From Solirubrobacterales bacterium (GTDB lineage Bacteria; Actinomycetota; Thermoleophilia; Solirubrobacterales; 70-9): 53,918 nt of DNA. The notes below the pieces were generated by a model. It was not told the origin of the DNA, ran no database searches, and saw only the letters and a program-made list of their open reading frames with translations. The translations under genes were made by a program, and so were the position numbers. Where the stretch lies: positions 2,090 through 56,007 of the forward strand of contig JBBDTK010000018.1 of NCBI GenBank assembly GCA_040904405.1. The letters are read 5' to 3'. Every line of letters begins with the position of its first letter. Position 1 is the first letter of the stretch. Positions 5,788 to 52,057 of this stretch are shown here, piece after piece.

Positions 5788-6768
5788 GTGACCTATCCGC
5801 ACACGACGGGGCAGAGGAACAGGGCAGCGGGGGTGGACCTGGGGGTCGTCATCGTCGCCCACGGAGCCGAGGGGCTGCTGCGGCGCTGCCTGCGCTCGCT
5901 CGAGCGGCACCCGCCGGTGGGAACGATGCGGGTGACTGTGGTCGACAGCGGCAGCCCCGACTCGACCCCGGAGATGGTCGAGCGCGAGTTCCCTGCGGTG
6001 CGGCTGATCCGCCGCGGGAACATCGGCTTCTCCGCCGCCAACAACCTGATCCTGCGCGAGCACGAGGCGGACGCCTACCTGCTGCTTAACCCCGATACCG
6101 AGGTCTACGCGGGGACGCTCGACGCCGCGCTGGCTCGGCTGCGCGGCGAGGAGCGGATCGGCATGGTCGGGGTCAAGCTGGTGACCGAGTCGGGTGAGCT
6201 CGACCACGCCTGCAAGCGTTCCTTCCCGACCCCGCTCTCCGCCCTCGCCCACTTCGCCGGCGTCGGCCGCGGCGAGGGCGCCGGCCCGGCGTTGAGCCAG
6301 TACCGGGCGACCCAGCTCGGCGACGACGAGCCGGGCGAGGTCGACGCGGTCAACGGCGCCTTCATGCTCTGCCGGGCGCAGGCGGTGCGCGAGGTCGGCC
6401 TACTCGACGAGGGCTACTGGCTCTACATGGAGGACCTCGACTGGTGCCGCCGCTTCTGGGACGCGGGCTGGCGGGTCTTCTACGAGCCGGCCGGCACCGC
6501 CCTCCATCTGAAGGGCGGCTCCAGCGCCGGGCGGCGGGCGCCGCGCCAAGAGATCGCCTTCCACCGCGGCATGGGTCGTTTCTACCGTCAGCACGAGGCA
6601 GCCGAACACAACCCGCTGCTGAATCTCGCCGTCTACGCCGGGATCGGCGCCAAGCTCGCCACCAGCCTCGCGATTACCGCAGTGCAAACCGCTAAGGCTA
6701 GAAACGACAAGACCCGCCGAAGCGGGTCGAGTCTGGCGAAGCGGGGAACCACCCCCGCGGACGGCTGA
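5788..6768 (+). CDS. Family 2 glycosyltransferase
   Basis: GTG start. Motifs are VVIVAHG…VVDSGSPDST…NIGFSAANN…LLLNPDTEV…GAFMLCR…YMEDLDWC, a GT2/rhamnosyltransferase-like pattern. Confidence 0.85.
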   Translation: MTYPHTTGQRNRAAGVDLGVVIVAHGAEGLLRRCLRSLERHPPVGTMRVTVVDSGSPDSTPEMVEREFPAVRLIRRGNIGFSAANNLILREHEADAYLLLNPDTEVYAGTLDAALARLRGEERIGMVGVKLVTESGELDHACKRSFPTPLSALAHFAGVGRGEGAGPALSQYRATQLGDDEPGEVDAVNGAFMLCRAQAVREVGLLDEGYWLYMEDLDWCRRFWDAGWRVFYEPAGTALHLKGGSSAGRRAPRQEIAFHRGMGRFYRQHEAAEHNPLLNLAVYAGIGAKLATSLAITAVQTAKARNDKTRRSGSSLAKRGTTPADG

Positions 6769-6831
6769 CACCCGTAGAACCTAGGCTACCACGGACCGCC
6801 CTGACTCGACCCACCTCTTTGGATCTATCTG

Positions 6832-6920
6832 CGGAGGGCGCCGGACTCGAACCGGATCCGCTGGTAAGGCGGACAGACGGATGTCAGCCGTCCGGGCACA
6901 CCTGTGCGCCTTCACCCTCC
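6832..6920 (-). tRNA. tRNASec-like / allo-tRNA-like gene, 8/4 acceptor-T architecture, anticodon GAC (no encoded CCA)
   Basis: Minus strand reads GGAGGGTG-AA-GGCGCA-CAGG-TGTGCC-CGGACGG-CTGACAT-CCGTCTG-T-CCGC-CTTACCA-GCGG-AT-CCGG-TTCGAGT-CCGG-CGCCCTCC-G. The fold has an 8-bp acceptor, a 6-bp D stem with a 4-nt loop, and a 7-bp anticodon stem with a 7-nt loop (U33, GAC, A37). It also has a 4-bp variable arm, a 4-bp T stem with a canonical TTCGAGT loop, and discriminator G. Folded by eye only. Confidence 0.55.
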
Positions 6921-7005
6921 TGCAGCCGAAGCTAACAGTGAAATCCGGCCAAAAACCGCACTGCACCGAATTGGCACACTAATTTTTCACTTTCGCTTGT
7001 AAGCC

Positions 7006-7021
7006 GTCACAAGTATGTGAC
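7006..7021. promoter_or_regulatory. Palindrome GTCACA-AGTA-TGTGAC in the AT-rich spacer between the rmlC stop and the tRNA-like gene
   Basis: Perfect 6-bp arms with a 4-nt spacer, 8 nt after the rmlC TAA stop. It sits in the only AT-rich stretch (6921-7028) of this region. It could be a weak terminator hairpin or an operator. Confidence 0.3.
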
Positions 7022-7028
7022 TTTTGAC

Positions 7029-7577
7029 TTAAAAGGGAAGAGTCTCGGCGACCTCGGCCAGCCTCGGGGCCTGCTTGTCGCGCTCAGAGAGGAGGGGTTC
7101 CTCGACCGGCCACTCGACGCCGACGTCGGAGTCGTCCCAGGCGATGCCGGCCTCGGTCGCCGGGTCGTAGGCGCTGGAGAGCAGGTAGGCGACGTCGGCG
7201 ACGTCGCTGAGCACCGCGAAGCCGTGGCCGAAGCCGGCCGGGACGAAGAGCTGGCGGTGGCGCTCGTCGTCGAGCTCATGGCCCTCCCACTGGCCGTAGG
7301 TGGGCGAGTCGCGCCGCAGATCGACGGCGACGTCGAAGACCCGCCCGCGCGGGCAGCGGACCAGCTTCGCCTGGCCCGGCTCGGTCTGGAAGTGCAGCCC
7401 GCGCAGCGTCCCCCTCGCCGAGCGCGAGTGGTTGTGCTGGACGAACTCGACCTCGACCCCGAGCTCGGCCCAGGAGTCGCGGCGGTAGGTCTCGACCATG
7501 AAACCGCGCTCGTCGCCGTGCACGGCCGGCTCGAGCAGGACGACGCCGTCGAGCTTCGTCGGCAGCCGCTTCGGCAT
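7029..7577 (-). CDS. rmlC: dTDP-4-dehydrorhamnose 3,5-epimerase
   Basis: ATG at 7577 overlaps the rmlB stop (ATGA). Sequence is MPKRLPTKLDGVVLLEP…HGDERGFMVETY…RGTLRGLHFQ…QAKLVRCPRGRVFDVAVDLR…FVPAGFGHGF. Confidence 0.9.
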   Translation of the reverse strand: MPKRLPTKLDGVVLLEPAVHGDERGFMVETYRRDSWAELGVEVEFVQHNHSRSARGTLRGLHFQTEPGQAKLVRCPRGRVFDVAVDLRRDSPTYGQWEGHELDDERHRQLFVPAGFGHGFAVLSDVADVAYLLSSAYDPATEAGIAWDDSDVGVEWPVEEPLLSERDKQAPRLAEVAETLPF

Positions 7578-8560
7578 CAGCCGAGCGCCTGGCCGTACTG
7601 CTTCTCGTAGTACTCGCGATACTCGCCGGAGCGGATCGGCCCCCACCACTGCTCGTTCTCCCGGTACCACGCCACCGTCCGCTCCAGGCCCTCGGCGAAG
7701 TGGACCTGGGCCTCCCAGCCGAGCTCCTCGCGCAGCTTGTCGGAGGCGAGCGAGTAGCGGCGGTCGTGGCCGGGGCGGTCCTTGACGTACTCGATCAGCG
7801 ACTCGTCGGCGCCGGTCAGCTCGATCACCCGCTTGACCACCTCGATGTTCTCGCACTCGTCGGGGCCGCCGACGTTGTAGGCCTCGCCCGGGCGGCCCTC
7901 GAGCAGCACCGTGTGGATGCCGCGGCAGAAGTCCTCTACGTAGAGCCAGTTGCGCACCTGGCGGCCGTCGCCGTAGACCGGCAGCGGGTCGCCGTGGACG
8001 GCGTTCAGGACGATCAGCGGGATCAGCTTCTCCGGGTACTGGCGCGGGCCGTAGTTGTTCGAGCCGCGCACGATCGAGGCCTCGATCCCGTAGGTGTGGA
8101 CATGGGCGGTGACGAGCAGGTCGCCGGCCGCCTTGGTGGCCGAGTACGGCGAGGAGGGGTCGAGTGGCGAGGTCTCGGTGAACGAGCCGGACTCGATCGA
8201 GCCGTAGACCTCGTCGGTGGACACCTGCAGGTAGCGGGCGACGCCGAGCTCGCGGGCGGCGTCGAGCAAGGTGCCGGTGCCGATCACGTGGGTGCGGGCG
8301 AAGGCGTCCTGGTCGTCGATCGAGCGGTCGACGTGGGACTCGGCGGCGAAGTTGACGACGGCGTCACAGCCCTGCATCGCCTCGCGCACGACCGCCGGGT
8401 CCTCGATCGCCCCCTCGACCAGGTCGGTCCCCTCGGGCAGGTTCTCGCGGCGGCCGGCGTAGGTGAGCTTGTCGAGCACCCGCACCTGGTGCTCGTCGCC
8501 GAGCAGGCGCACGTAGGTGGAGCCGATGAAGCCGGCGGCGCCGGTGACGAGGATCTTCAC
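7577..8560 (-). CDS. rmlB: dTDP-glucose 4,6-dehydratase
   Basis: GTG at 8560 overlaps the rmlD stop (GTGA). Sequence is VKILVTGAAGFIGS…SHVDRS…STDEVYG…PYSATKAAGD…DRPGHDRRY. Confidence 0.92.
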   Translation of the reverse strand: MKILVTGAAGFIGSTYVRLLGDEHQVRVLDKLTYAGRRENLPEGTDLVEGAIEDPAVVREAMQGCDAVVNFAAESHVDRSIDDQDAFARTHVIGTGTLLDAARELGVARYLQVSTDEVYGSIESGSFTETSPLDPSSPYSATKAAGDLLVTAHVHTYGIEASIVRGSNNYGPRQYPEKLIPLIVLNAVHGDPLPVYGDGRQVRNWLYVEDFCRGIHTVLLEGRPGEAYNVGGPDECENIEVVKRVIELTGADESLIEYVKDRPGHDRRYSLASDKLREELGWEAQVHFAEGLERTVAWYRENEQWWGPIRSGEYREYYEKQYGQALG

Positions 8561-9411
8561 GCCGCGGCCTCGCTCTCGCTGCGGCGCTGGGCGAGGTAGG
8601 CGGCGAGGCCGTCCTGCCAGGAGGGCAGCTCGATCGGGTGCTGGCGCTGGCTCGCCAGCGCCGAGAGGGCGGGCCGCGGCGCCGGGCGGCCGAGCATCTC
8701 GGTCGTCGCCGACATCACCTTGCACTCGACTTTCGCCTGCTCGAAGATCTCACGCGCGAACTCGTACCAGGAACAGGCGCCGGCTGCGGCCATGTGGTGG
8801 ATGCCGAACTCGACTCCCTCGATCAGGCGGACGATGCCGTAGGCGAGGTGCCAGGTGTAGGTGGGGGAGCCGACCTGGTCGCGGACGACCAGAACCTCGC
8901 CGTGGTCGGCGGCGAGGCGCAGCATCGTCTCGACGAAGTTGGGGCCGGCCGTGCCGAAGAGCCAGGAGGAGCGGACGACGAAGTGGCGCTTGTTGGCGGC
9001 CCGGGTCGCCTCCTCGCCGGCCAGCTTGGAGCGGCCGTAGGCGGAGAGCGGCGCGGTCTGGTCGGTCTCGACATAGGGCGAGTCCTTGCTGCCGTCGAAG
9101 ACGTAGTCGCTGGAGACGTAGACGACCGAGGCGCCGACGGCGGCAGCCGCGGTGGCGACGTTGCCGGCGCCCCCGCCGTTGATCTCCGTCGCCTCCTCCT
9201 CGTGCTCCTCGGCGCCGTCGACGTCGGTCCAGGCGGCGCAGTTGATCACCACGTCGGGCCGCTCGGCCTCGATCTTCGCCGCGCACGTCTCCGCCTCGGC
9301 GACGTCGAGCTCGTTGTGGCCGAAGCCGACCACCTGGTGGCCGGCGTTGCCTGCGGCGAGCATCACGTCGCGGCCCAGCATGCCGGCGGCCCCTGCCACG
9401 AGCAGCTTCAT
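8557..9411 (-). CDS. rmlD: dTDP-4-dehydrorhamnose reductase
   Basis: ATG at 9411 overlaps the rmlA stop (ATGA). Sequence is MKLLVAGAAGMLG…VINCAAWTDVDGAE…VYVSSDYVFDG…YGRSKLAGE…VVRSSWLFG. Confidence 0.9.
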   Translation of the reverse strand: MKLLVAGAAGMLGRDVMLAAGNAGHQVVGFGHNELDVAEAETCAAKIEAERPDVVINCAAWTDVDGAEEHEEEATEINGGGAGNVATAAAAVGASVVYVSSDYVFDGSKDSPYVETDQTAPLSAYGRSKLAGEEATRAANKRHFVVRSSWLFGTAGPNFVETMLRLAADHGEVLVVRDQVGSPTYTWHLAYGIVRLIEGVEFGIHHMAAAGACSWYEFAREIFEQAKVECKVMSATTEMLGRPAPRPALSALASQRQHPIELPSWQDGLAAYLAQRRSESEAAA

Positions 9412-10487
9412 CAGATGATCTTGATCTCGGACTTGTCGCCGACCAGCATCCGCAGGGTCTTCGGCATCCCCTCGCTGCGGGTCAGCTTCACTTCGCGGCC
9501 CAGCAGGCTGGCCTCCATCCGCGTGCCGAGGTCCTCGACGACCGAGCCGGCGAGGACGATCGAGTGCTCGATTTCGGAGCGGCAGATGCGGACGTTCTCG
9601 CCGATCGAGGTGTAGGGGCCGACATAGGCGTTCTCGATCCGGGCGCCGGCGCCGATCACGGCCGGGCCGCGCACCACCGACCCGGTCAGGACCGCGCCGC
9701 TCTCGACCACCACCCGCCCCTCGACCCGCGAGGCCTGGTCGACCTCGCCCTCGATCCGCAGTTCGATCTCCTCGAGGACGAGCCTGTTCGCCTCCAGCAT
9801 GTCGGCGAGCTGGCCGGTGTCCTTCCACCAGCCGCTGACCACCTCCGAGTTCACCTTGTGGCCGTCCTCGATCAGGGCCTGGATCGCCTCGGTGATCTCG
9901 TACTCGCCGCGCCAGGACGGCTCGAGCGCGCGCGCCGCCTCGAAGATCGCCGGCTGGAAGAGGTAGACGCCGACCAGGGCGAGGTTGGAGGGCGGCTCCT
10001 TCGGCTTCTCGACCAGGCGGACGATGCGCTCGCCGTCGAGCTCGGCGACCCCGTAGTGCTCGGGGTCGGCGACCGGGGTGAGCAGGATCAGCGCGTCGGG
10101 CTCGTCGCGGCGGAAGGCCTCGACCAGGCCGCGCAGCCCGTCGGCGAGCAGGTTGTCGCCGAGGTACATGACGAAGGGCGAGTCGCCGATGAACTCCTCC
10201 GCGGTCAGCACCGCGTGCGCCAGCCCGGCCGGCTTGTCCTGGACGATGTAGGTGATCTCGGCCCCGAAGCCGGCGCCGTCGCCCGCCGCGGCGCGGATCT
10301 CGTCGCCGGTCTCCGGCGCGATGATGATCCCGATCTCCTTGACCCCGGCCTCGACCAGCGCCTCGATCCCGTAGAAGAGCACGGGCTTGTTGGCGACGGG
10401 CACCAGCTGCTTCGCCGAGGTGTGGGTGATCGGGCGCAGCCGGGTGCCGGCCCCGCCGGAGAGGATCAGGCCTTTGAGCGGCTCCAT
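9411..10487 (-). CDS. rmlA: Glucose-1-phosphate thymidylyltransferase, long form (~358 aa with C-terminal left-handed beta-helix)
   Basis: ATG at 10487. Sequence is MEPLKGLILSGGAGTRLRPITHTSAKQLVPVANKPVLFY…VQDKPAGLAHAV…YLGDN. The C-terminus has hexapeptide-like repeats. Confidence 0.88.
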   Translation of the reverse strand: MEPLKGLILSGGAGTRLRPITHTSAKQLVPVANKPVLFYGIEALVEAGVKEIGIIIAPETGDEIRAAAGDGAGFGAEITYIVQDKPAGLAHAVLTAEEFIGDSPFVMYLGDNLLADGLRGLVEAFRRDEPDALILLTPVADPEHYGVAELDGERIVRLVEKPKEPPSNLALVGVYLFQPAIFEAARALEPSWRGEYEITEAIQALIEDGHKVNSEVVSGWWKDTGQLADMLEANRLVLEEIELRIEGEVDQASRVEGRVVVESGAVLTGSVVRGPAVIGAGARIENAYVGPYTSIGENVRICRSEIEHSIVLAGSVVEDLGTRMEASLLGREVKLTRSEGMPKTLRMLVGDKSEIKII

Positions 10488-11534: not shown

Positions 11535-11555
11535 TTCGCTAATCTTCTAGCGAAT
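11534..11555 (+). promoter_or_regulatory. 8-bp-stem hairpin (ATTCGCTA-atcttc-TAGCGAAT) spanning exactly from the GT2 stop to the Fic start codon
   Basis: The left arm begins with the last base of TGA (11532-11534). The right arm ends with the AT of ATG (11554-11556). The stretch is AT-rich, and no Shine-Dalgarno sequence is visible upstream of the fic gene. Confidence 0.35.
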
Positions 11556-12759
11556 GCTATTACCTTTCGATCCCCGCCAGTTCCACGACGACGTCGTCGA
11601 GCTCGACGCCTGGTACGAGCGGCTTGCCGCGCGTCAGACCTGGGCCGAGCGAGGCTGGCCGCAACGGCTGCGGCGTGAGCTGGAGGCCGAGGCGATCGCC
11701 CACTCGACCCGGATCGAGGGGGTGCCGGTGACCGTCGACCAGGTGCGGCGCATTCTCGGCGGCGACCCGCCCGCGGAGGTGGCGGCTTCCGACCGGGATC
11801 TCGTCGAGGGGTACCGCGACGCGGTGGTCCTCGCTCAACGCCGCGCCGACGATCCCGGCTTCGTCTGGCATCGTGCCGAGCTGATCGCACTTCAGGGCAG
11901 CGCGATGCGCGGCACCCCGGTCGCGGGGGCGCTGCGCGGCGGCGAGGTCTACATCGCGCGGGGGAGCGAGGTCGTGTTCACGCCGCCCCCGGCCACACAG
12001 GTGCCCGCCCTGCTGGACGCCGCCTGCGAGCGGGCAGAGGCGCTCGGCGCCGGCGCGCACCCGGCGCTCGCGGCAGCCTGGATCCATGTGGCCGTCGCGG
12101 CGATCCACCCCTTCGCCGACGGCAACGGCCGCACGGCGCGGCTCTGCACGACGCTCGCGATGTGCCGCGGAGGTCGCCCGGCGCCGTTCGCCTCCTCGCT
12201 CGAGGAGTGGTGGGGCAACCACACGACCGACTACTACGCCGCGTTCGGGTGCCTGGGCAGCCGCTTCGACGACGACGCCGACGTGACTCCGTTCGTCGCC
12301 GCCCACCTGCGGGCGCAGCTCGCCCAGGCGCGGGCGCTCGACCTGCGCGAGGCGGCCGAGCGTCGCCTCTGGCGGCTCTGCGCTGTCCTCGCCGAGAGCC
12401 ACAGCCTCCCCGAGCGGGCCGGCAACGCGCTCTGGGAGGCGTTCTTCGGTCGCGAGGTGTCGGCGCGCTACTACGGCGAAGTCTGCGACGTCAGCCCGGC
12501 CACGGCTCGCAACGACCTCGCGGCGTTGGTCGCCGCGGGTGCGTTCGAGGCCTCCGGGCGCACCCGGGGGCGGACCTACCTGCCCACAGGGATGGCGGTC
12601 GGCGCGATCGCCGAGCGCCTCGACGTCGATCCCGGCGAAGACGAGACCGCCGCGCTTCGCCACCGTGCGCTGGCCGCCCTCGCCGACCGGGTCCGCGCCG
12701 AGGCGTCCCCCGCCCCCGGCCCGCCGGAGGGGCGGGGGCGGATATCGTCGCGGCGGTGA
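11554..12759 (+). CDS. Fic-domain protein (class II, N-terminal inhibitory helix; C-terminal winged-helix-like region)
   Basis: Exact Fic motif HPFADGNGRTAR. Upstream STRIEG matches the inhibitory (S/T)xxxE(G/N) motif. The C-terminus SPATARNDLAALVAAGAFEASGRTRGRTY is wHTH-like. Confidence 0.88.
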   Translation: MLLPFDPRQFHDDVVELDAWYERLAARQTWAERGWPQRLRRELEAEAIAHSTRIEGVPVTVDQVRRILGGDPPAEVAASDRDLVEGYRDAVVLAQRRADDPGFVWHRAELIALQGSAMRGTPVAGALRGGEVYIARGSEVVFTPPPATQVPALLDAACERAEALGAGAHPALAAAWIHVAVAAIHPFADGNGRTARLCTTLAMCRGGRPAPFASSLEEWWGNHTTDYYAAFGCLGSRFDDDADVTPFVAAHLRAQLAQARALDLREAAERRLWRLCAVLAESHSLPERAGNALWEAFFGREVSARYYGEVCDVSPATARNDLAALVAAGAFEASGRTRGRTYLPTGMAVGAIAERLDVDPGEDETAALRHRALAALADRVRAEASPAPGPPEGRGRISSRR

Positions 12760-50247: not shown

Positions 50248-50967
50248 TTGCATCTGCAAACCACGACCGCCAACAAGCTCGCCAGCATCGCTGAGGACCA
50301 GTGGGGGCTGCTCACCCGCCGCCAGGCAGAAGCGGCGGGGGTCTCGGCCGCTACCCTACAGCGGCTGAGCAGGCCCGGCGGCGTTCTCGAGCGCACGGCC
50401 CACGGCGTCTACCACCTGGCCGGAGCGCCGCTGCCCCCCCACCCAGGCCTGCGCTCGGCCTGGCTGGCCTTAGCGCCAGGAACCCTTGCCTGGGAACGAA
50501 AGCCCGCCCAAGGCACCGTCTCCCATCGCTCCGCCGCCGCGCTTTGGGGACTCGGCGACCTGGCTCCCGACCGACACGAATTCACCCTTCCTGAGCGCCG
50601 CCAGACCCGGCAGCGCGGCGTCCGCCTGCATCGCGGTCAGCTCGGCGCAGATGAAACCGCGATCCTTGGCGGCCTCCCTGTCACCTCGCCCGCTCGCACC
50701 GCCAGCGACCTGCTCGCGGACAAGGAGGGCCCCGAAGCCGTCGCCCGGATCATCACCGAGGCGCTGCGCGAGAAAAAGGAGTGGGTGGGCAACCTCCCCT
50801 CCGCGCTGGCGCCGCGGGCCGCGGGGGTCGGCTTTCGCCGCGACGACTGGCGGGCAGTGCTCGCCTGGCTGCTCGACCTGAGTGGCGACCCTGATCCCGA
50901 GCGCTGGCTCGAAGAGGCCGAAGCGAAGTCGACCGACATCACCCTGCCCAGCCTGGACGTTCCCTGA
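50248..50967 (+). CDS. abiEi: AbiEi-family antitoxin (type IV TA / abortive infection)
   Basis: TTG start. Sequence is …EDQWGLLTRRQAEAAGVSAATLQRLSRPGGVLERTAHGVYHLAG…VSHRSAAALWGLGDL…. An AbiEii gene follows directly. Confidence 0.8.
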   Translation: MHLQTTTANKLASIAEDQWGLLTRRQAEAAGVSAATLQRLSRPGGVLERTAHGVYHLAGAPLPPHPGLRSAWLALAPGTLAWERKPAQGTVSHRSAAALWGLGDLAPDRHEFTLPERRQTRQRGVRLHRGQLGADETAILGGLPVTSPARTASDLLADKEGPEAVARIITEALREKKEWVGNLPSALAPRAAGVGFRRDDWRAVLAWLLDLSGDPDPERWLEEAEAKSTDITLPSLDVP

Positions 50968-50971
50968 GCCG

Positions 50972-51862
50972 ATGGCGGCGCGAGGCTATGCCAGCCCTGC
51001 AGCGTTCCGGCGAGCGCTGACCGACAAGCTTGCCACGGTCGCGCGAACCGGTAAATGGTCGCTGCCCCAGTTGCAACGCCAGATCTCCTACGACCGTCTG
51101 CTGGAGCGCCTGTACGCGGTCGACGACGGCTGGGTCGTCAAGGGCGCCACGGCACTGCTCGCTCGTGACCTCGGCGTCCGCGCCTCGATCGATGTCGATG
51201 TCTTCCGAGCTGCAGCGCTCGAGGTCGCCGAGCGCGAGCTGCGCGAAGCCGCCGCGCTCGACCTCGGTGACTGGTTCGTCTTCGAGGTGGGCCCAGCGCA
51301 GCCGGCCAGCGACGGCGCAGCCGGGCTACGGGTGCCGAACCGCGCACTCATCGGCCCCACCGAGTGGGCGAGCTTCCACATCGACCTGGTCGGCAACGAG
51401 GTGATGATGACCGGGGTGCCGGAGCAGATGCCGGCGCTGGCGCGGGTGATGATGCCCGACGTCGAGCAGCGCGGCTACCGGGTCTACCCCTTGGTTGACC
51501 ACGTGGCCGACAAGATCGCCGCCACCTTCGCCCGCTACGGCAAGTCCCGCTCCCCCTCGACCCGCTACAAGGACCTGGTCGACCTGGTGGCGATCGCCAG
51601 CGCTGCCTCAGTTGAGGCCCAGGCCCAGATCGTCGCCCTGCACTCGGAGGCGAAGCGCCAATCGATCGAGCTGCCAATCGCCTTCGCGGTCCCAGACCTC
51701 AAAGCCTGGAAGCGAGGATATGAGGCAGAAGCAGCGCGCTCGCTACTGGAACTGGCCACCACGCTGGAGGAGGCACTGGGGCTGATGACGCGCTTCGCCG
51801 ATCCGCTACTGGACGGCAGCGCGCGCGGCACCTGGGATCCCAGCGCCGAAACCTGGCGCTGA
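50972..51862 (+). CDS. abiEii: AbiEii/AbiGii nucleotidyltransferase toxin (DUF1814)
   Basis: ATG 50972. Motifs are VVKGATALLAR, SIDVDVF (DxD) and TRYKDLVDLV. Confidence 0.85.
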   Translation: MAARGYASPAAFRRALTDKLATVARTGKWSLPQLQRQISYDRLLERLYAVDDGWVVKGATALLARDLGVRASIDVDVFRAAALEVAERELREAAALDLGDWFVFEVGPAQPASDGAAGLRVPNRALIGPTEWASFHIDLVGNEVMMTGVPEQMPALARVMMPDVEQRGYRVYPLVDHVADKIAATFARYGKSRSPSTRYKDLVDLVAIASAASVEAQAQIVALHSEAKRQSIELPIAFAVPDLKAWKRGYEAEAARSLLELATTLEEALGLMTRFADPLLDGSARGTWDPSAETWR

Positions 51863-51984: not shown

Positions 51985-52057
51985 TGGCGAGGGTGGGAAT
52001 CGAACCCACGACACCACGATTTTCAGTCGTGTGCTCTACCAACTGAGCTACCTCGCC
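51985..52057 (-). tRNA. tRNA-Phe (anticodon GAA), CCA not encoded
   Basis: Minus strand reads GGCGAGG-TA-GCTC-AGTTGGTA-GAGC-A-CACGA-CTGAAAA-TCGTG-GTGTC-GTGGG-TTCGATT-CCCAC-CCTCGCC-A, a canonical 7/5 cloverleaf. Confidence 0.95.

Follow-up and report, generated by a model that had tools for sequence, protein, structure and literature searches.

A conserved 8/4 allo-tRNA-like gene and a putative antisense small RNA facing its anticodon arm in Solirubrobacterales

Transfer RNAs whose acceptor and T stems are divided 8/4 or 9/3, known as allo-tRNAs, have been reported from Clostridia, Proteobacteria and Acidobacteria, with one Val-anticodon 8/4 species in metagenomes, and an (8/4) allo-tRNA(GAG) put Ser at Leu codons and was lethal to E. 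coli (Mukai, Soll, NAR 2017, PMC5389517). Analysing a 53,918-nucleotide (nt) stretch of a Solirubrobacterales genome (contig JBBDTK010000018.1; the whole stretch is hereafter the window), we describe an allo-tRNA-like gene with a GAC anticodon on the minus strand, followed by a predicted small RNA (sRNA) gene whose 5' end is complementary to the anticodon arm of that tRNA. On balance, we consider it probable that window positions 6994-6701 (-) form a two-gene module in which this antisense sRNA would sequester a Ser-type missense tRNA. The tRNA shares with the published allo-tRNAs the 12-bp 8/4 branch, the long tRNASec-like D stem with its tetraloop, the long variable arm, G73 and a non-Ser sense anticodon. 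It differs by its clade, the Thermoleophilia (Actinomycetota), which PMC5389517 does not name, and by the anticodons of its family, GAC, GAU and GAG instead of the UAU, GCG and GUC that predominate there. The words antisense and complementary are absent from the main text of PMC5389517, whereas about 97% of the copies described here are accompanied by a co-varying anti-anticodon sRNA.

The selenocysteine tRNA (tRNASec, encoded by selC, RF01852) has the same 8-bp acceptor stem, 6-bp D stem with 4-nt loop, long variable arm and G73, whereas the T stem found here counts 4 bp without the 51a bulge, giving a branch of 12 bp and not 13, the UCA anticodon never occurs and no sel gene was found in the window. 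RNA antitoxins are known from type I (tisB/istR-1), type III (ToxIN) and type VIII (CreTA and SdsR/RyeA) systems. As in these, the present locus consists of adjacent small genes with specific RNA-RNA complementarity, involving a partner-specific seed of ~15 nt that remains cognate in multi-copy genomes; the presumed antidote outlasts its decayed partner and its promoter looks stronger. The locus differs in that the presumed toxin is a tRNA and not, as in the part of that literature considered here, an mRNA, a protein or a tRNA-sequestering RNA, and in that its two genes lie in tandem on the same strand, share one terminator and are chromosomal, syntenic and apparently vertically inherited. T-box riboswitches (RF00230) also pair with a tRNA anticodon, over 3-4 nt, and set a terminator against an alternative helix. 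Here, a tRNA would likewise be read via its anticodon and the terminator would compete with an alternative helix (H1, below), whereas the pairing spans about 15 nt of loop and stem, the tRNA gene forms part of the cassette itself, and no downstream gene is conserved, the next gene being often convergent, as in the window. The Rfam scan gave no T-box match even at E = 10, and the downstream genes are unrelated. Finally, Streptomyces and Kitasatospora reportedly possess tRNAProX, a tRNA of canonical 7/5 fold with a dedicated ProRSx, as a means of deliberate mistranslation said to have been presented by Vargas-Rodriguez et al. in PNAS in 2021; it would also be an extra actinobacterial tRNA whose anticodon and amino-acid identity disagree and whose expression is presumably conditional, whereas the tRNA described here has an RNA partner and no protein partner. 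In the literature searched, we found no sRNA dedicated to the anticodon arm of a tRNA.

The 8/4 tRNA-like gene and its family

Read on the minus strand, the 89 nt of the gene are GGAGGGUG-AA-GGCGCA-CAGG-UGUGCC-CGGACGG-CUGACAU-CCGUCUG-UCCGC-CUUACCA-GCGGA-U-CCGG-UUCGAGU-CCGG-CGCCCUCC-G. Their minimum-energy fold is identical to the non-canonical cloverleaf that an earlier note, made from the letters alone, had drawn for this strand. An 8-bp acceptor stem (GGAGGGUG/CGCCCUCC, one U.G pair) leads to the 2-nt linker AA; the D stem counts 6 bp around a 4-nt loop, CAGG, the anticodon stem 7 bp around CUGACAU and the T stem 4 bp around UUCGAGU, and the variable arm has 5 bp. The same note's reading of the 3' end also holds, since the discriminator, position 73, is G and the next three letters are CAG, leaving no encoded CCA. 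The fold energy (-45.7 kcal/mol, z = -3.0) was equalled by none of 200 shuffles. Among the searches which that note had proposed, ARAGORN called the gene as tRNA-Val(gac) at 6831-6920(-), and Rfam answered in part: in a local E-value scan, tRNA-Sec (RF01852) was the best Rfam match with 42.4 bits and E 2e-7, below its gathering threshold of 47, and a gathering-threshold scan of the whole window missed the gene and returned a tRNA-Phe as its sole match. The covariance model built for the family scored the window tRNA at 86.6 bits (E 4e-15) and found no second copy in the window.

The family alignment favours bulging C14 of the window copy, which leaves 5 bp in its D stem and 6 bp in its anticodon stem, a drawing as valid as the one with 6 and 7 bp. 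The 12-bp branch is divided 8 + 4 in both the minimum-energy fold and the family model: G8-C66 is paired in 75 of 81 aligned sequences and is G.U in the remaining 6, and a fifth T pair would be U.C (U49/C65). This split follows from pairing logic and not from covariation, because the search pattern allowed no variation in the 3' halves of acceptor and T stem. The Ser-type marks of the tRNA comprise G1-C72, G2-C71, A3-U70, G73 and the long variable arm, and the GGAG... start and G73 are common to this tRNA and the canonical tRNA-Ser of a related metagenome-assembled genome (MAG). It also bears a canonical T loop, a D-loop GG and a purine at position 37. The analysis confirms a real, conserved allo-tRNA-like gene, which is neither an ordinary tRNA nor selC.

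The family was sampled with one fixed 23-nt 3' pattern, CCGGTTCGAGTCCGGNNCCCTCC, and all family figures in this text are figures among the matches listed for it, at least 120 in JGI metagenomes and at least 120 in species-representative genomes. The covariance-model census of these matches counted ~225 full-length copies (at least 60 bits) and ~17 degraded ones in 245 loci. Nearly all matches come from Thermoleophilia. The genome matches, all of them MAGs, belong mostly to Solirubrobacterales, then to Gaiellales, Thermoleophilaceae, Conexibacteraceae and unclassified Actinomycetota, and several closed ~2.5-Mb chromosomes hold two distant copies each. A phage origin was rejected, as the IMG/VR scan gave only 2 matches, both fragments or weak.

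When the window copy was aligned with 80 diverse relatives, 95.4% of the cells were paired, compared with 78.3 +/- 0.5% in shuffles that ignore phylogeny (reached by 0/500) and 38-52% in slid controls, and double-change cells numbered 416 against 150 in the shuffles. No pair of the D, anticodon or variable helices is without compensatory double changes; pairing reaches 97% in the D helix and 98% in the variable helix, and all ten pairs of these two helices show double changes. For the acceptor and T stems, whose 3' halves were set by the search pattern, the sample shows no variation and hence offers no covariation evidence. The same tRNA in a syntenic relative (L003) has a compensatory replacement of C-G by U-A in its anticodon stem, and C-G in place of U.G in its acceptor stem. 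Relatives, which the earlier note had proposed to inspect for compensatory changes or decay, therefore display preserved pairing, in L003 as in the 81-sequence alignment.

The 98 model-aligned copies of the genome set carry the anticodons GAC (43), GAU (25), GAG (16), CAG (8), CAC (4) and GCC (1). Their anticodon loop always counts 7 nt, position 37 is a purine in 98/98, G34-A35 occurs in about 85%, and G73 was found in 99/100 aligned matches. A 'TCA' anticodon parsed by hand in L060 was set aside as an apparent loop-register error. GUC is a very common codon, as had been supposed, with 48.5 per 1000 in the window genes (66% of Val), next to CUC (43), AUC (37.5) and CUG (58); altogether, the codons matching the family anticodons (GUC, AUC, CUC, CUG, GUG) are used at 22-58 per 1000 in these genes. 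Canonical tRNAs, looked for as Val(GAC), Leu(GAG) and Ile(GAU), amounted to 7 in all in the fetched loci.

Two groups of matches stand apart. One lies in a 'Chloroflexota' MAG (L160), with a trailer and flank near-identical to Conexibacteraceae/Solirubrobacterales contigs (L044, L092, L225), and this contig is probably mis-binned. Ten others (L053, L067, L078, L082, L091, L110, L084, L096, L244, L245) hold just the 3' ~45 nt of the tRNA, i.e. variable arm, T arm and acceptor 3' strand, after unrelated 5' sequence; these remnants look like integration-site (att) remnants, and two are on IMG/VR contigs.

Complementarity between the trailer and the anticodon arm

Comparing the 165 nt downstream of each copy, we found ~50 nt 3' of the tRNA (~20 nt in a short-trailer subfamily) the reverse complement of its own anticodon-stem 5' strand and anticodon loop. 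In the window, this seed, GGGUGUCAGCCGUCCG, faces CGGACGGCUGACAUCC (6894-6879) as a reverse-complement match with one G.U pair. A 15-nt anticodon-arm probe formed at least 13 pairs with its own trailer in 131/150 loci, and all 15 in 70 of them, whereas against non-cognate trailers the median was 11 and 15 was reached by 7/741. Over 120 unique pairs and 15 positions, the seed and the tRNA were paired at 95.9%, compared with 69.5 +/- 0.8% when seeds were shuffled among loci, again regardless of phylogeny, and 71.9% as the highest value of 1000 shuffles. The agreement extends to anticodon base 36, which faces its seed partner as C:G (62), G:C (26), U:A (10), U.G (4), G.U (1) or a C.C mismatch (1), and to tRNA position 33, with which the sRNA partner base co-varies. 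In genomes with two cassettes, the best partner of each seed is its own tRNA, and in the window the seed has, besides the tRNA, one further site at chance level. RNAcofold predicts for the window pair a 14-bp intermolecular helix (ddG -8.4 kcal/mol), and family means of -8.2 +/- 4.0 kcal/mol for cognate and -1.1 +/- 2.3 kcal/mol for non-cognate pairs. The pairing thus appears supported both by covariation and by predicted energies, and, as far as comparison of sequences reaches, the covariation proves that it is under selection. Of the options that the earlier note had left for this tRNA, tight control hence gains strong, if indirect, support from a dedicated and co-varying antisense sRNA gene following it.

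The predicted sRNA of ~75 nt starts with this seed, continues with a GC hairpin and a single-stranded linker, and ends in an intrinsic terminator with a U-rich tail. Its consensus structure bears compensatory changes in 11/16 pairs, with hairpin and terminator conserved, and the linker, equally conserved and single-stranded, has the family consensus YUUCACC. The sRNA profile was found behind 229/237 tRNA matches with enough flank (about 97%). A local Rfam scan of the trailer up to E 10 returned just weak, terminator-driven matches to isrK and rsmX, so that the sRNA belongs to no catalogued family.

In the window, both genes are preceded by an extended -10-like box. In 116/127 unique cassettes, a TANNNT hexamer starts -20 to -13 (mode -14) from G1 of the tRNA, and in 120/127 another starts 18-11 nt (mode 14) before the anti-loop; each is almost absent elsewhere within +/-60 nt, and the distance from hexamer end to functional 5' nucleotide has its mode at 8 nt for both. 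The promoter argument consists of this positional TANNNT enrichment. An E. coli-type -35/-10 promoter scan found nothing; actinobacterial promoters can be -10-only, so that an empty scan of this type is expected. The separate upstream region credited to the tRNA by the earlier note is therefore present in the form of a promoter-like box (P1). The TGn extension is found at 74/120 sRNA boxes (P2) against 22/116 tRNA boxes, and the sRNA promoter accordingly looks the stronger of the two, judging from its motif. In the short-trailer subfamily, just P2 and the sRNA follow the tRNA.

Longer trailers contain further elements that could act in transcripts started at P1. The strand GGGTCGAGTC is the exact reverse complement of GACTCGACCC, which shares 5 nt with the terminator stem, and the resulting helix H1 is possible just in P1-started transcripts. 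By eye, other loci display compensatory variants of it (TCGAGC/GCTCGA, TCGGG/CCCGA); RNAalifold did not recover H1, the terminator helix winning, and we retain this antiterminator-like alternative as an observation by eye. Another 6-bp helix, 6801-6796/6764-6759, has double changes in 5/6 pairs (RNAalifold, 13 trailers) and would, in read-through RNA, mask the seed or present the anti-loop as an internal loop. Neither H1 nor this masking helix occurs in the short-trailer subfamily. In the predicted fold of the read-through RNA, the partner of the anticodon arm is the seed (-121 kcal/mol, z = -5.3). The segment 6801-6796 was also seen to resemble the tRNA's own anticodon-stem strand.

Upstream of the tRNA, all subfamilies carry the motifs GTGTGCCAATT, GAGCCAATTCAGTAAC and GTGCCGATT, often as two direct repeats; they lie ~50-70 nt before the tRNA, in L003-L243 as in the window, and are common to subfamilies with differing tRNA bodies. 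About half of 121 loci have a word of the G(T/C)C(A/G)AT type, with peaks at -55 and -68 from the first tRNA nucleotide. This far-upstream motif looks like a transcription-factor site.

The sRNA linker CUUCGCC is moreover complementary to tRNA nt 5-11, GGUGAAG (6916-6910, (-)), i.e. the inner acceptor stem and the 8-9 linker. In an anchored test, 81.5% of these positions were paired compared with 78.4 +/- 0.5% in shuffles, a real but small signal, and tRNA nt 7 faces its linker partner as U:A (88), C:G (19), U.G (18) or C.A (1). The linker may thus be a second contact that would open the acceptor stem too; it lies outside the core claim.

Table 1. Coordinates of the cassette elements and of neighbouring features in the window
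Feature	Position	Strand	Remarks
Far-upstream motif GAAAGTGAAAAATTAGTGTGCCAATT	6969..6994	-	may serve the tRNA promoter as a regulator site or UP-type site
P1, extended -10-like box TGtTAGCTT	6929..6937	-	ends 8 nt before tRNA nt 1
8/4 allo-tRNA-like gene	6832..6920	-	anticodon GAC 6885-6883; discriminator G at 6832; CCA not encoded
H1 5' strand GGGTCGAGTC	6803..6812	-	exact reverse complement of GACTCGACCC, 6733-6724
Trailer strand GGGCGG	6796..6801	-	pairs with seed 3' part 6764-6759 in read-through RNA
P2, extended -10-like box TGgTAGCCT	6783..6791	-	for the sRNA
Predicted ~75-nt sRNA	6701..6775	-	5' end placed from P2 geometry
Seed GGGUGUCAGCCGUCCG	6758..6773	-	faces tRNA nt 26-40: anticodon-stem 5' strand, whole loop, 2 nt beyond
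sRNA GC hairpin	6758-6741	-	fold of sRNA alone
sRNA single-stranded linker CUUCGCC	6741-6735	-	fold of sRNA alone
sRNA intrinsic terminator	6728-6711	-	fold; terminator scan match; U-rich tail 6710-6701
GT2 gene	5788-6768	+	
rmlC, rmlB, rmlD	7029-9828	-	rmlC side at 7029
Hairpin GTCACAAGTATGTGAC with T-rich tail	7006-7021	+	directly past the rmlC stop
Fic/DOC-family gene	11554-12759		
AbiEii-type nucleotidyltransferase toxin gene	50882-51862	+	
Canonical tRNA-Phe(GAA)	51985-52057	-	adjoins the AbiEii-type gene

Genomic surroundings and degraded copies

As the earlier note had placed it, the tRNA gene of the window lies between a GT2 gene, preceded by Wzy-like and Bac_transf genes on the plus strand, and the rml operon on the minus strand. 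Homologues of RmlC with 85-92% identity belong to Solirubrobacterales, and the same rml/glycan synteny was found in L002 and L003; another locus fetched as a syntenic relative (L001) lacks the cassette. This neighbourhood is limited to one Solirubrobacterales sublineage. Clustering of 900 neighbouring open reading frames (ORFs) from 242 loci gave as most frequent neighbour an ion channel, present in 34 loci, and no constant protein neighbour, Fem/MprF/GNAT-type aminoacyl-transferases included; families were checked against Pfam for the window's own representatives and judged from sequence for the others. Other cassettes adjoin ion-channel, acetyl-CoA synthetase, MFS and RmuC genes. A dedicated synthetase or transferase encoded in cis was rejected, no general family being found among the 900 ORFs, and neither sel genes nor SerRS were found among the window ORFs scanned against Pfam.

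Degraded copies were also recovered. In L002 (6630-6745), the tRNA is lost from nt 14 on and its box is fused to the P2 region, the ~100 nt downstream being retained and the sRNA intact; among L004-L100, 9/10 degraded tRNAs keep the sRNA, and about 3 intact tRNAs lack it. This survival of the sRNA after tRNA loss is a circumstantial, antidote-like asymmetry.

Several features around the cassette deserve mention in their own right. The GT2 ORF overlaps the sRNA/terminator region by about 68 nt on the opposite strand and its L003 homologue stops before the terminator, so that its C-terminal ~25 residues may either be spurious or represent a genuine antisense overlap. The plus-strand hairpin GTCACAAGTATGTGAC may end rml transcription or be part of the upstream regulatory region of the tRNA. 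Elsewhere in the window, the canonical tRNA-Phe(GAA) neighbours an AbiEii-type toxin gene, and a Fic/DOC-family gene is present; neither of these two genes is kept beside the cassette in other loci.

Sequestration of a missense tRNA and its alternatives

In the module that we favour, the first gene would be an intact 8/4 allo-tRNA for the dominant Val codon GUC, transcribed from its own -10-type promoter and essentially leaderless. Because SerRS ignores anticodons, the tRNA, once free, would cause Val codons, or Leu or Ile codons in relatives, to be read as Ser. The lethality of allo-tRNA(GAG) in E. coli, together with the Ser-type marks, therefore makes the control of a potentially toxic missense tRNA the natural reading. 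The second gene would yield the ~75-nt, terminator-ended sRNA, starting about 55 nt past the tRNA from a usually stronger extended -10 promoter. Its unstructured 5' end would pair with all seven anticodon-loop bases and the anticodon-stem 5' strand of its own tRNA, docking on the loop and then invading the stem, and the resulting 14-16-bp duplex would take the tRNA out of decoding and possibly mark it for a double-strand RNase. Read-through from the tRNA promoter would carry the same complement in cis and is predicted to misfold, and would thus be self-silenced, leaving the tRNA to be freed only upon a drop in sRNA supply. The module would then act as an RNA toxin with its RNA antidote or as a conditional-mistranslation switch. 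Going one step further, we entertain as a tentative idea, short of probable, that it is a hitherto undescribed type of RNA-only toxin-antitoxin or conditional-mistranslation switch in which a seryl-accepting 8/4 toxin tRNA reading the commonest hydrophobic codons (GUC in the window, AUC, CUC, CUG or GUG in relatives), held by a short-lived anticodon-arm sRNA, is released when transcription falters.

Several observations weigh against this interpretation. The covariation fits action in trans as well as in cis, and either RNA as regulator or target. All family sequences come from MAGs or metagenomes, and the antidote-like asymmetry is biased by a search pattern that required the 3' half of the tRNA. 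The cassette sits at conserved positions of the chromosome, in many Solirubrobacterales behind rmlC, and hardly occurs on viral contigs; this syntenic and apparently vertical inheritance is unlike that of typical mobile toxin-antitoxin or defence cassettes. Furthermore, U33 is near-universal among decoding tRNAs, and the genome set has U at this position in 77/98 copies, C in 17, A in 3 and G in 1; the first anticodon-stem pairs are also frequently mismatched across the family. Together, variable position 33 and mismatched first pairs hint at a relaxed decoding constraint.

The main rival, which we regard as unlikely without dismissing it, is a maturation switch restricted to cis, a 'pro-tRNA', where the complement would work just inside the P1 read-through precursor and the trailer box would be no promoter: misfolding would affect the anticodon arm and also, by way of the CUUCGCC linker, the inner part of the acceptor stem, and RNase P, RNase Z or the CCA enzyme would mature the tRNA conditionally. 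No terminator separates the tRNA from the seed, the minimum-energy fold of the precursor joins anticodon arm and seed, the read-through-only helices H1 and 6801-6796/6764-6759 have compensatory changes, and tRNA nt 5-11 find a complement in the linker, nt 7 co-varying with its partner, all as such a switch would have it. It accounts poorly for a TANNNT at fixed distance from the seed in 120/127 cassettes (TGn in 62%), with the same geometry as at the tRNA's own promoter, for the short-trailer subfamily, which keeps box and seed despite having neither H1 nor the masking helix, and for sRNA genes that outlast a deleted or degraded tRNA. The relaxed positions listed above (C33, A33 or G33 in about 21% of copies, anticodon stems often imperfect) suit instead a tRNA-shaped RNA that does not decode, its shape being kept for RNase P, the CCA enzyme, an aminoacyl-tRNA synthetase or another tRNA-binding protein and not for the ribosome, and the tRNA-sRNA duplex being itself the functional unit, for instance a sponge/titration pair or a sensor. 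We judge this improbable as well. It agrees with the conserved single-stranded YUUCACC linker of the sRNA and with the allo-tRNA(UAU) variants that were translation-inactive and for which regulatory roles were suggested (Mukai et al.), but the loop invariably counts 7 nt, with purine 37 in 98/98 and G34-A35 in about 85%, the confinement of anticodons to abundant hydrophobic codons is difficult to account for if the RNA does not decode, and the Ser-type acceptor shows strict conservation, with G73 in 99/100.

The proposal that the tRNA serves as a non-ribosomal aminoacyl donor for the envelope or glycan chemistry of the surrounding locus, put forward in the earlier note, is not supported, and we hold it for very unlikely: the window copy does have the rml operon on one side and the GT2, Bac_transf and Wzy genes on the other, with the same synteny in L002 and L003, but the neighbours change to ion-channel, acetyl-CoA synthetase, MFS or RmuC genes elsewhere, no Fem/MprF/GNAT-type or other family is constant over the 242 loci, the glycan context belongs to one sublineage only, and an anticodon-directed antisense RNA would have no obvious role there. 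The Sec/Cys-pathway role considered in the same note did not hold up either. A selC variant recoding GUC to selenocysteine, or a decaying selC pseudogene, scarcely deserves credence, even with tRNA-Sec as the top Rfam match and (8/4) tRNASec known in Actinobacteria (PMC5389517): the score stays under the gathering threshold, the branch has 12 bp and not 13, UCA occurs in 0/98 model-aligned copies, compensatory changes keep the stems and hence speak against decay, and the window holds no sel genes.

The ARAGORN labels that these genes receive (tRNA-Val, tRNA-Ile, tRNA-Leu) may name the wrong amino acid. Two genes of ~80 nt now make testable an open question, that of programmed mistranslation, or of a tRNA used as a toxin, in bacteria, and an orthogonal tRNA with a programmable RNA off-switch could be of use in synthetic biology. 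Switching of a tRNA by a dedicated antisense RNA would be a new control mode, unreported as far as the literature was searched. Should the toxin-antitoxin or conditional-mistranslation switch be real, phage attack, stress or starvation would free the tRNA and flood the proteome with Ser-for-Val, Ile or Leu errors, and this would be the first natural tRNA under a dedicated anti-anticodon sRNA. If the pairing works as proposed, natural missense-suppressor tRNAs would be a standing, RNA-controlled part of a soil-abundant bacterial class.

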